Positions 8,030 through 9,379 of a stretch of DNA of 64,000 nucleotides are shown piece after piece; within the stretch, counting starts at the first letter, position 1, and each line of letters begins with the position of its first letter. This DNA is from Candidatus Latescibacterota bacterium. GTDB lineage: Bacteria > Latescibacterota > UBA2968. The notes beneath the pieces are model-generated. The model was not told where the DNA came from. It saw only the letters and a program-made list of their open reading frames with translations, and did not search any database. The position numbers and the translations under genes were made by a program. The stretch is taken from contig OZ220741.1 in the NCBI GenBank assembly GCA_965116885.1, positions 1,312,001-1,376,000 on the forward strand. The letters run 5' to 3'.

Positions 8030-9379
8030 TTACTCAGTGCAATCGCAAGGCAGAACAGTATTGGCAAAACGAGAAAGATCATCCCCTGTCTTGCTGCTGT
8101 CAGCTAAAATATCGTAGGAAAACTCACTCGATGCACCGAAGAACCCGATGAAACTTGTCGCGTCAGGGTTCTTCCGCTCTCGATTCTCAAGTTCCAGGTC
8201 TCGCCCGTACTTGTTTTCCATACTCGCCCACCAATCAATTGTGCATGGCGTATCAATAGTCGGCCCGAAGTCTCTAATCTCGCGCTCTTTTTGATTTTCC
8301 ATTGCTTCGTGTATTTGCGTCAGATTGCCAATGCCTTTGAGAAAACAATAGACACAATTAGAAAGTGCGCCATTTGGAGAGAGTTCCAAACCCCAACCTT
8401 GTTGTTGCCAAAAATCATTAACATCTTCTCGCCCTATGTGCATCTTTGTAAATGGCATATAGACGTGTTCACCTTCGTATCCTTTGTTCGCGTGAGGATT
8501 GGATGACCTGGATTCTACTCTGGCGACTCGCAGTTGTTCGTCTCCACGCAAACCAATGAAAGCAACATATTCAATACCCCCATCGCCGAACCACGCTTTC
8601 TGCCCGAATACTTTGTCCTTAAGCAATGCGTTTTCAAAGGGACTCGCTGGTGCAGAGAAGTCACGATAATACTGTTTCGGACGGCAGGTTGGTCGGCTCA
8701 ATACGAATCTTTTCTTTTGAAGAAGCACATCTTTAGGCACACCGCCCCCATTACGTATATGGCTTTTGTGCATTTGGTCAGTGTCAACCTGCGATTCTGG
8801 AAGCCCATGTCCCAAACGCGGGATGCTTTTCTTGCTTGCAAACCAGTCTCGGAGAAACTGACGGGTAATTTCCAGCTTGAGGGATAGTGTGCAAACGCGG
8901 GTAAACTGATTCGGCAAATATGCTTTGTTTGAAAGCATTTCCTCAAAAGCCTCACCGCGCCACTGGAAGCCATCCGGATTAGTCTCTGAGAAGGGATGCT
9001 CATTGACTAGGCGGTAGGAGGAGATGCGGCGCCATTCTCCCTGCCGTGCGTCTTCGTAGGTTTGGAATTGGATGAAGAAGAAGGGGATACCGGCTGCTTC
9101 TACGCGCTTTTTGCACTCAGCGGCGAACTTGTAAGTCTCAGGGTGTTCGCACGAAGTGTTGTTGAATACCACTACATCACCGCGCTCTTGCTTAAGAAAT
9201 CCATTTTCTAATAAGGTGAAAAGTAGCATGCCACTGGAACGTCCTCCAGAAAACTTAACGACATGCGGGAGTTCTTGGTGGTATTTGGAACGATAACGAA
9301 AGGAGTAGGTTTTATCAGGATCATAGTGTTTGGATTTTTGTAATTTTCTCGATATTGAGAGTTTAGGAATAGCCTGCAT
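8030..9379 (-). CDS. PAPS-reductase-family PP-loop protein (DndC/SspD-like), probably Fe-S binding
   Basis: FSGGRSSG PP-loop, NTSCEHPETY, RVCTLSLK, IGLRGDE, NCVYCFLK, C-terminal PCDC; AAGGGGG RBS. Confidence 0.8.
   Translation of the reverse strand: MQAIPKLSISRKLQKSKHYDPDKTYSFRYRSKYHQELPHVVKFSGGRSSGMLLFTLLENGFLKQERGDVVVFNNTSCEHPETYKFAAECKKRVEAAGIPFFFIQFQTYEDARQGEWRRISSYRLVNEHPFSETNPDGFQWRGEAFEEMLSNKAYLPNQFTRVCTLSLKLEITRQFLRDWFASKKSIPRLGHGLPESQVDTDQMHKSHIRNGGGVPKDVLLQKKRFVLSRPTCRPKQYYRDFSAPASPFENALLKDKVFGQKAWFGDGGIEYVAFIGLRGDEQLRVARVESRSSNPHANKGYEGEHVYMPFTKMHIGREDVNDFWQQQGWGLELSPNGALSNCVYCFLKGIGNLTQIHEAMENQKEREIRDFGPTIDTPCTIDWWASMENKYGRDLELENRERKNPDATSFIGFFGASSEFSYDILADSSKTGDDLSRFANTVLPCDCTE

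Follow-up and report, generated by a model that had tools for sequence, protein, structure and literature searches.

A stretch of 64,000 nucleotides from a Candidatus Latescibacterota bacterium (contig OZ220741.1, positions 1,312,001 to 1,376,000; hereafter the window) carries, on its minus strand, a gene for a 449-amino-acid (aa) protein of the PP-loop type, and raises the question of what this enzyme acts upon: whether it serves sulfate assimilation, modifies RNA or protein, or marks DNA. With about even confidence, the protein is read here as an ATP-dependent writer of sulfur into DNA, most likely as phosphorothioate (PT), belonging to an undescribed modification-and-defence cassette. Its gene is located as follows:

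8030..9379, minus strand: PP-loop ATP pyrophosphatase of the NinC/SspD clade, 449 aa, with an ATG start, recognised by motifs and profiles

Translation of the plus strand over 8030-9379 is riddled with stops. Four motifs may be read in the 449-aa translation: SGGRSS (aa 44-49), RVCT (aa 161-164), NCVYC (aa 341-345) and PCDC (aa 444-447), the last followed by TE and the stop codon, the tail thus reading LPCDCTE. All four had been listed by a first-pass annotation made from the sequence alone; they are present, and their residues are invariant across 18 close homologues (68–81% identity). Across 39 diverse homologues (33–80% identity) no variation is seen at S44, G45, G46 and S49 of the loop, R161, C163, T164 and K168 of the RxCT region, N341, C342, C345 and K348 of the CxxC region, and C445 and C447 of the tail; R47 is at least 90% conserved. 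SGGRSS fits the PP-loop signature, which is N-terminal and of the SGGxDS type, with the canonical Asp replaced by Ser. The annotation had set this loop apart from SGGKDS, as found in DndC. This holds in part: the change from Asp to Ser/Thr at position 5 is distinctive, while the Arg at position 4 is not, SspD proteins of the same phylum featuring either SGGRDS or SGGKDS. The loop of phage NinC-like proteins, SGGRTS, also lacks the Asp at position 5, and no SGGxDS motif was seen at the N-terminus of the genome's own CysH.

The core kept by the family consists of SGGxxS, NT..EH..TY, R-x-C-T-x-x-x-K, G-x-R-x-DE-x-x-R and NCxxCF-x-K, and these motifs align with the corresponding motifs of SspD and NinC in the hhalign alignments. 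Specific to the family, relative to NinC and SspD, are an insertion at about aa 181-268 (roughly 85 residues), a C-terminal extension (393-449) and a conserved hairpin at about aa 100-129. The family is large: 1360 proteins match it at E<=1e-3 among 5245 candidates, and 910 representatives of 50%-identity clusters match at the same threshold, 139 of them at E<=1e-30. Members, where named in the source, are mostly "hypothetical protein". The best 120 of the 1360 matches are 68–80% identical to the window protein; the few named proteins among them come from metagenome-assembled genomes (MAGs) of Gemmatimonadetes, Chloroflexi and Gammaproteobacteria, and many related loci are found in MAGs bearing sponge-associate taxon names. 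Distribution is patchy. When 168 genomes of the phylum were searched, four had the full-length gene, and in the same four the gene for a GHKL-type ATPase, also found in the window, is adjacent; a fifth genome has a 301-aa short relative only. Within the genus, the gene is found in 2 of 21 genomes, the own genome included. The gene is real, strongly conserved and horizontally mobile.

The affiliation of the protein was evaluated by profile comparison. When compared by hhalign, the profile of the 39 family sequences matches NinC-like proteins at 100% (E 1.8e-43, 223 columns, 35% identity), SspD at 98.4% (E 5.9e-15, 183 columns), DndC at 13.5% (E 2e-3) and the genome's own CysH at 0.6% (E 0.1); for scale, NinC against SspD gives 99.2%, DndC against SspD 96.9% and NinC against CysH 1.3%. 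PHROG 424 (phage PAPS reductase) matches two stretches of the protein with 105.3 bits (E 7.5e-30), and BLASTP against DndC gives an E of about 0.05. The first-pass annotation was therefore right in seeing a closer likeness to phage PAPS-reductase-like proteins than to DndC. Its term "DndC-like" is less fitting: SspD is clearly the nearer cellular family, and a strict DndC identity is rejected, given the 13.5% hhalign value and the missing match to the DndC model TIGR03183. The same model has no match in the own genome, and 13 of the 168 phylum genomes exceed its cut-off.

A quick maximum-likelihood tree was built from 45 rows: 18 of the 39 family sequences, three domains fused to methylases (described below), three NinC-like proteins, ten SspD, ten DndC and one CysH. 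The family and the methylase fusions form one clade (approximate likelihood ratio test, aLRT, 91), which joins the NinC-like proteins (93) and is separate from the SspD (99) and DndC (93) clades. BrxP is absent from the tree, because the BrxP model found nothing in the 168 phylum genomes. By these comparisons the protein is placed as a long-form branch of the NinC/SspD clade, distinct from the phage NinC-like proteins.

The latter, exemplified by annotated NinC-like genes of Microcystis phage Mae-JY30 and of a Burkholderia phage and by the PAPS reductases of Chi-like Salmonella phages, are the closest family. Common to both are SGGR[ST]S, RxCT..LK, G[LI]RxDE..R, GNCxxCFLK, WW and a C-terminal cysteine pair: two phage proteins of 276 and 287 aa feature SGGRTS, R[WI]CT..LK, G[LI]RxDE, GNCDLCFLK and WW, and end in CGLLCG or DCMCGD. 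NinC-like proteins are 276–287 aa long and stand alone, whereas members of the window family have about 450 aa, with the insertion at 181-268 and a longer C-terminal domain, and are tied to a desulfurase and to a trio of genes including the GHKL ATPase. A tblastn search of phage genomes led to 67 records, annotated as NinC, NinC-like or PAPS reductase, all below 60% identity and none covering 80% of the query; a scan of viral contigs with the family profile found a single weak relative (L094, 26% identity). The neighbours of these phage relatives are genes of replication and recombination. The 301-aa short relative from the same phylum (G130:C1:2781075-2781938) matches the family profile with E 2.7e-22 and the SspD model with E 5.3e-14, and may be a cellular, NinC-like intermediate form.

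The AlphaFold2 (AF2) model of the protein has a mean predicted local distance difference score (pLDDT) of 92.6 and a predicted template-modelling score (pTM) of 0.92. Its top matches by VIA-align are reductases of 3'-phosphoadenosine 5'-phosphosulfate (PAPS) and adenosine 5'-phosphosulfate (APS), with Z 9.9–11.4, root-mean-square deviation (rmsd) 3.4–4.4 and 178–204 of the 449 residues aligned; the best is 2oq2 (Z 11.4, rmsd 3.7, 204 residues), and 7rge, 2o8v, 6vpu, 1sur, 4bwv and 2goy score Z 10.0–10.3. GMP synthetase, the iron-sulfur (Fe-S) tRNA thiolases NcsA and TtuA, and TilS are next (Z 8–9), and the CBASS Cap9-CdnD complex 9nto is also among the matches (Z 7.0). The protein thereby belongs, by loop and fold, to the PP-loop ATP pyrophosphatase superfamily (adenine nucleotide alpha-hydrolase fold). 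Foldseek gave no match to the model at E<=1e-3. PDB sequence searches with the protein alone or with the 39-sequence profile gave nothing real, the sole row for the profile being a chance 14-3-3 (E 0.19); a bona fide DndC gave nothing real either. No entry titled DndC, SspD or TdpC is among the Foldseek and VIA-align matches listed, which does not exclude the existence of such entries.

Taken by themselves, the structural matches would suggest a divergent assimilatory APS/PAPS reductase (CysH), working in sulfate assimilation, and a weak match to Pfam PAPS_reduct (PF01507, 18.9 bits) and a cysteine pattern resembling CC...CxxC...C-tail point the same way. The Pfam match, however, is below the gathering threshold (GA) of 22.5 and is limited to aa 39-95, corresponding to profile positions 2-53 of 175; the aligned core is less than half of the protein; and the tail reads LPCDCTE, where CysH features ECG[LI]H. 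Nor does the patchy, island-like distribution, with a GHKL gene in 77 of 80 loci, fit an assimilatory enzyme. What CysH has in common with the window protein is the core fold and an analogous cysteine pattern (CC, CxxC and C-tail); membership by sequence failed. A CysH identity, already disfavoured, is rejected on the 0.6% hhalign value and on the presence of a genuine CysH (160.3 bits) at another locus of the same genome, and its residual probability is negligible. The annotation had named grouping within CysH, beforehand, as the outcome that would speak against it, and the protein does not group there.

The cysteine layout was compared by using three sequences per family:

Window PP-loop protein: C163; C342xxC345; C445xC447
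SspD: RWC92T; C177xxC180; C275xxC278
NinC-like: RWC or RIC; CxxC; CxC or CxxxC
The genome's own CysH: C115C116; C200xxC203; ECGIH (C226)

All five cysteines of the window protein are invariant in the 39 homologues, and their motifs align with the CC/CxxC of APS-reductase-type CysH. In APS reductases, a [4Fe-4S] cluster is bound by CC and CxxC, and a mobile nucleophile is provided by the tail cysteine; because these roles match the layout, the window protein is proposed to have a putative Fe-S or persulfide site that a mobile C-terminal tail would feed. For three of the seven best reductase matches the aligned range extends to residue 445-449, a hint only that the tail occupies the position of the reductase catalytic tail. 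A relay of persulfide by the terminal CxC, as proposed in the first-pass annotation, is reasonable, yet such a tail is ancestral to the NinC/SspD clade and not peculiar to this protein. The pair, which had been taken as distinguishing, is common to SspD (whose end reads CxxC-HK) and to NinC-like proteins (CxC or CxxxC). The further idea, that loop and tail point to a product other than PT, loses its ground: since both features are found in SspD and NinC-like proteins, there is no particular reason to expect a non-PT product.

The PP-loop gene lies in an operon of six minus-strand genes, arranged head to tail, where the called open reading frames (ORFs) are separated by gaps of 6, 2 and 2 nucleotides (nt) or overlap by 26 and 16 nt. 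The other five are:

6872..8023, minus strand: IscS/NifS-type cysteine desulfurase, SspA/DndA-like, 383 aa (PADLOC, Pfam)
4851..6869, minus strand: GHKL-type ATPase, distant from PDC-M33A, 672 aa (PADLOC PDC-M33A, E 1.3e-36)
4016..4876, minus strand: PDC-M33B-like protein, 286 aa (PDC-M33B, E 2.8e-9)
3138..4013, minus strand: DUF6339-family protein, 291 aa (Pfam 22.2 bits, just below GA 23.2)
1402..3153, minus strand: accessory GmrSD/BrxU-like protein, 583 aa (GmrSD_N 58.8 bits; 7p9k, a DUF262 protein, E 2.7e-4)

Conservation of this arrangement was evaluated in 80 loci, the best of 390 relatives confirmed by a family-profile scan in contigs of one genome per species; partners were scored by phmmer with the window proteins. 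The PP-loop gene is present in all 80, the GHKL gene in 77, the M33B-like gene in 74, the DUF6339 gene in 73, the desulfurase in 69 and the GmrSD-like gene in 25. The commonest order, found in 37 of the 80, is PP-loop gene, desulfurase, GHKL, M33B-like, DUF6339; the GmrSD-like gene, when present, follows the DUF6339 gene or is inserted between desulfurase and GHKL gene.

In a sample of 400 genomes of one class, a relative of the M33B-like gene was found in 11 genomes, one further genome being unscored. A PP-loop gene lies about 1–2 kb from it in 9 of the 11, among which is a sub-type, PP-loop gene, GHKL, M33B-like, without room for a desulfurase. Close copies of the trio (GHKL, M33B-like, DUF6339) travel with the writer; distant GHKL and M33B-like pairs, in genomes without a PP-loop gene, also exist. 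The GC content is 0.43–0.51 over 1–10 kb of the window and 0.52–0.57 in the flanks, and the cassette is, judging from this composition, from its patchy distribution and from defence-type genes lying within it at two loci, a horizontally mobile island.

Writers without a trio are known as well: two loci (L038, L032) feature PP-loop gene and desulfurase only, and a second copy in one genome (G323) and the methylase fusions are also trio-less. The asymmetry between writers without trio and trios with writer fits, though on small numbers, a writer joined to a dependent effector or targeting module. In two further loci (L080:11332-17640 and L039:12534-17732) the trio is separated from the writer, which may or may not have its desulfurase, by defence-type genes, among them those for ResIII/DEAD helicases, an AAA_23/SMC_N ATPase, a protein containing sigma70_r4, a MORC-type HATPase_c_3 ATPase and a PLD-like protein. 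Two loci differ from the rest. In one (L034:5531-9957) an orphan PP-loop gene immediately follows one that is dCTP-deaminase-like (DCD_N/DCD_C) and one for a 769-aa protein with a PPDK_N ATP-binding domain, and may represent a different, nucleotide-directed defence context. In the other (L054:3851-19217) a PP-loop gene without desulfurase is flanked by three tandem GHKL/M33B-like/DUF6339 trios; a search of that whole genome led to four M33B matches, of which two are interrupted by an internal stop.

The source of sulfur would be the desulfurase, whose start follows the stop of the PP-loop gene by 6 nt. In PADLOC it scores 482 bits as SspA and 481.8 bits as DndA; it matches Pfam Aminotran_5 with 288.5 bits and the IscS model TIGR02006 with 448 bits, under the 643.2 cut-off of the latter. 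The lysine binding pyridoxal phosphate (PLP), K204, and the catalytic C328 are invariant in 21 sequences. Co-folding of desulfurase and PP-loop protein, based on alignments of 21 and 39 rows respectively, had been proposed as a check by the first-pass annotation: the score is 0.57 (0.49, 0.57 and 0.57 in the single runs), the best of three controls being 0.00, with at least 87% of contacts in agreement among runs and a partner pLDDT of at least 83. The mark used is reached by 116 of 157 solved complexes and by 2 of 215 mismatched pairs; at scores of 0.60 or less only 18 of the 157 passed, plus both mismatched pairs. The predicted binding thus receives weak support.

The desulfurase might, on the other hand, only build an Fe-S cluster, the product being free of sulfur and the DNA being left adenylated or coupled to a different nucleophile, by a chemistry like that of TilS, QueC or GMP synthetase. 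Such a reading would explain the loci and the entire sub-type lacking a desulfurase; it also draws on the structural scores, as good for GMP synthetase, TilS and NAD synthetase as for thiolases, and on DndA, first described, according to the title of You et al. 2007, as the assembler of the Fe-S cluster of DndC. The C-terminal cysteine pair, though, is invariant, and across the 80 loci the cassette has no conserved enzyme that could serve as the donor of some other group; Dnd and Ssp too, as stated in the part of PMC12914056 at hand, are often without a linked desulfurase and use IscS instead. A sulfur-free product is held to be quite improbable.

Evidence for DNA as a target is provided by three members of the family (P0182, P0167, P0161), which are fused to a C5 DNA methylase. 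The fusions nest within the PP-loop family (aLRT 98). The replication and recombination neighbours of the phage relatives, and the GHKL ATPase and GmrSD-like DUF262 enzyme of the cassette, point to DNA as well. In P0182 the methylase is complete (237 bits; FxGxG, PCQ, ENV and GNAV, as read by eye), and the PP-loop domain keeps every family motif, its C-terminal end reading CSCTD. The P0182 locus (L095:10001-12472), from a gammaproteobacterial MAG, features topoisomerase III, DUF1643, secretin and T2SSE as neighbours, without a GHKL trio or desulfurase nearby, and looks like a mobile element. When genomes were scanned with P0182, its own locus was found, along with 34 loci matching the methylase half only.

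Since C5 cytosine methylases flip bases, the three fusions may also be seen as an indication for a writer acting on DNA bases, producing a thio-base by adenylation of the base carbonyl, as ThiI, TtcA, TtuA and NcsA do on RNA, or some other non-PT sulfur mark. NcsA and TtuA rank high among the structural matches (Z about 9), the PP-loop protein fails the models of the PT writers DndC, SspD and BrxP, and family-specific parts (aa 181-268, 393-449 and the hairpin at about 100-129) make up more than half of it. The thiolases, however, match no better than GMP synthetase or TilS, and because these score equally the likeness is attributed to the shared fold; moreover, the nearest characterised relative, SspD, is a backbone writer. 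Natural DNA is not known to contain thio-bases. A base writer is judged unlikely.

For the trio, alignments were made from subsets hand-picked for clean ORF calls (30 GHKL, 30 M33B-like and 26 DUF6339 sequences, besides the 21 desulfurases). The GHKL ATPase matches Pfam HATPase_c_3 with 23.4 bits, below GA 25, and features the Bergerat invariants E41, N45 and D48, D125, G127 and G129, G152 and G155, along with invariant D577 and D581. The last two belong to a D-E-x-x-D-x-x-C patch, invariant or near-invariant, at residues 577-584 of the C-terminal beta-rich domain; no match was found in the PDB, and the patch could be a metal site. The model of the M33B-like protein (pLDDT 90) consists of a beta-sandwich N-domain and a helical C-domain. 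None of its 30 members matches any relevant Pfam family, no catalytic motif is recognised, structural matches are generic Fn3/Ig-like beta-sandwiches only (best Z 7.3), and the ESM Atlas leads to unnamed clusters only. The DUF6339 model is matched by 22 of the 26 family members (best E 1.9e-9), and is too weak, as a genome query, to recover the window's own copy; the ESM Atlas leads from this protein to GAP1 domains, all below 0.9. Profiles of the DUF6339 and GHKL proteins gave nothing significant in the PDB.

The GmrSD-like protein is composed of a DUF262 N-domain with DGQQR and of a C-terminal region with HH..P...N..N, which, as read by eye, may be His-Me/HNH-like. Its PADLOC matches are PDC-M55C and HEC-05, the SspE model not being among them.

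No nuclease was recognised in the trio by Pfam, PDB profile or structure searches. This would suit a target other than DNA, that is RNA or protein, the enzyme being a tRNA thiolase or, as Cap9, a modifier of defence proteins, in a signalling or abortive-infection cassette; tRNA-acting PP-loop enzymes and the Cap9-CdnD complex are indeed among the structural matches. Yet the enzyme is closest to SspD and to the phage NinC-like proteins, the fusion partner is a DNA methylase, a GmrSD-like DNA enzyme is located within the operon in 25 of the 80 loci, and neither THUMP nor PUA nor any other tRNA-binding domain is found by Pfam. The probability of an RNA or protein target is very low.

Family placement, motif conservation, gene order, co-occurrence, the methylase fusions and the distinctness from CysH are demonstrated by these data; a DNA substrate, its adenylation, the transfer of sulfur, a PT product and the roles of the trio are what we infer. 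The PP-loop enzyme, as the writer of a mobile cassette of five to six genes, would use ATP to adenylate a DNA oxygen, most probably a non-bridging oxygen of the backbone phosphate, as in Ssp, Dnd and Tdp. AMP would then be displaced by sulfur, taken from cysteine by the co-transcribed SspA/DndA-like desulfurase and delivered through a core formed by C163 and C342/C345, probably Fe-S bearing as in APS reductase and DndC, and through the C445/C447 tail. The ATPase trio would act as a modification-dependent effector, or as the part scanning and targeting DNA, and the GmrSD-like enzyme as an optional, SspE-like restriction arm.

Several points weigh against a PT writer. The identity of the product, and even its sulfur content, is something we infer. 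The canonical Asp at position 5 of the loop is replaced by Ser. The protein does not match the DndC model TIGR03183 (cut-off 290.4 bits) at E<=0.01; it scores 34.5 bits with the PADLOC SspD model (PDLC02782, E 4.2e-9), over a best stretch limited to aa 266-349, where true SspDs of the same phylum score about 300–456 bits, and 22 bits with the BrxP model (PDLC02510, E 1e-5), over aa 39-106 only. By Pfam and PADLOC, neither a DUF4007 domain in the protein nor brx genes in the operon, both of which BrxP would call for, are found. Homology to SspD is, on the profile comparison, real despite the failure with the SspD model; in the quick tree, however, support is low (52) for the deep node at which SspD joins. 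Among the PADLOC matches of the operon genes there are no partners of SspB, SspC, DndD or DndE type, on which Ssp and Dnd depend. The desulfurase is unlinked in 11 of the 80 loci, and the sub-type with PP-loop gene, GHKL and M33B-like gene is entirely without it; a co-fold pass in the score range obtained is, moreover, wrong more often than right, unless the pair is likely beforehand. The methylase fusions would equally fit a base-directed reaction. Because no nuclease is recognised in the trio and 55 of the 80 loci are without a GmrSD-like gene, the restriction arm is unproven. PDC-M33, finally, stands as a PADLOC candidate in its own right, and in the remaining 2 of the 11 genomes of the class sample a weak M33B match (E 1e-6 to 1e-7) is found beside a distant GHKL gene (E about 1e-19), the PP-loop gene being absent from the genome.

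An undescribed DNA-modification immunity with a non-PT product, for example a thio-base or a persistent adenylated or derivatised site, where the writer would be targeted by a GHKL clamp or, in some relatives, by the fused C5 methylase, has a minor, though appreciable, probability. A PT writer of the NinC/SspD clade is here preferred.

The established PT systems, in the part of PMC12914056 at hand, are Dnd, Ssp, Tdp and BREX type 4, and a comparison with each is instructive for the PT-writer reading. SspD, the nearest characterised cellular family, has RxCT, CxxC and the C-terminal pair, that is the five-cysteine layout, in common with the window protein, and an SspA-like desulfurase (482 bits in the window) is the neighbour in both cases; the optional DUF262 nuclease parallels SspE, which carries a DUF262 domain (PMC12914056). 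SspD differs in length (about 280 aa against 449) and in its loop (SGGRDS against SGGRSS). The place of its operon partners SspB and SspC (PMC12914056) is taken by GHKL ATPase, PDC-M33B-like and DUF6339 proteins, and no Pfam or PADLOC match to SspB (DUF4007) or SspC is found in the operon, nor across the 80 loci. DndC, a member of the same PP-loop/PAPS-reductase superfamily, also features an RWCT-type motif, CxxC and an adjoining DndA-like desulfurase; it differs by extra cysteines and by lacking the C-terminal pair. Compact Tdp is described as needing no more than one PAPS-reductase-type gene for PT synthesis (PMC12914056), and those members of the family that stand alone or are fused to a methylase would be in keeping with this. 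BrxP of BREX type 4 consists of a PAPS-reductase domain fused to DUF4007, encoded beside brxC/Z/L (PMC12914056, PMC12839542, in the parts at hand). To PDC-M33 the window pair is related by matches of the GHKL ATPase to PDC-M33A and of the next gene product to PDC-M33B, both distant; it differs in that a PP-loop writer, a desulfurase and a DUF6339 protein accompany it.

The cassette matches no system in the literature searched, where nothing was found on DUF6339, on PDC-M33, on NinC together with PAPS reductase, or on a function of NinC-like proteins, and where, in the papers listed, PT-writer terms do not occur alongside GHKL, MORC or HATPase ones. Mentions of PAPS and of desulfurase are likewise absent from the paraMORC paper. 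The part of PMC12914056 at hand refers only in passing to a DUF262-linked dndC cluster. It describes P-loop ATPases as a hallmark of PT systems, and reports a neighbourhood screen in which a P-loop NTPase was required beside the PAPS-reductase gene. Since the window cassette features a GHKL trio in place of a P-loop NTPase, screens with this requirement would miss it.

A few other features of the window were recorded. Upstream of the operon, in divergent orientation, a NYN-domain protein of 230 aa is encoded at 10066-10758 on the plus strand (PADLOC HEC-09, E 4.7e-14); it was rejected as a cassette member, being found in none of the 80 loci. A scan for promoters gave 9 sites, fewer than in shuffled sequences (13.0 +/- 3.9), and one for terminators 14 sites, modestly above shuffles (8.9 +/- 2.8); these scans left the transcription unit undefined, except for a hairpin with a 14-bp stem at 1339-1369. 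It is located between the convergent ends of a sulfatase-like ORF (1225) and of the GmrSD-like gene (1402), and may be a shared terminator. At 19335-29399, on the minus strand, a 3354-aa ORF looks, by eye, like a multi-module polyketide synthase, with the order ketosynthase (KS), acyltransferase (AT), methyltransferase, enoylreductase (ER), ketoreductase (KR), acyl carrier protein (ACP), KS, AT.

What is new here is the assignment of a long-form branch of the NinC/SspD clade as the most likely sulfur writer of an undescribed cassette. Phage PAPS reductase is treated, in the part of PMC13369170 at hand, as an auxiliary gene of sulfur metabolism. The hhalign values of NinC, 99.2% with SspD and 1.3% with CysH, call this view into question for phage NinC-like genes. 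According to a passage of a 2026 preprint, phage PAPS reductases may modify DNA, and one of them reportedly promotes evasion of Dnd. If the product of the window cassette were other than PT, the phage "PAPS reductase/NinC" genes would be, by extension, DNA-modifying enzymes of counter-defence. If, instead, the enzyme writes PT, it would represent a further lineage of PT writers, beyond those of Dnd, Ssp, Tdp and BREX type 4, in which an enzyme of the SspD/NinC clade is combined with a GHKL trio and not with P-loop ATPases. Given its abundance and spread, with many loci in MAGs bearing sponge-associate names, the family may be responsible for a major DNA mark of symbiont communities that has so far gone unstudied.

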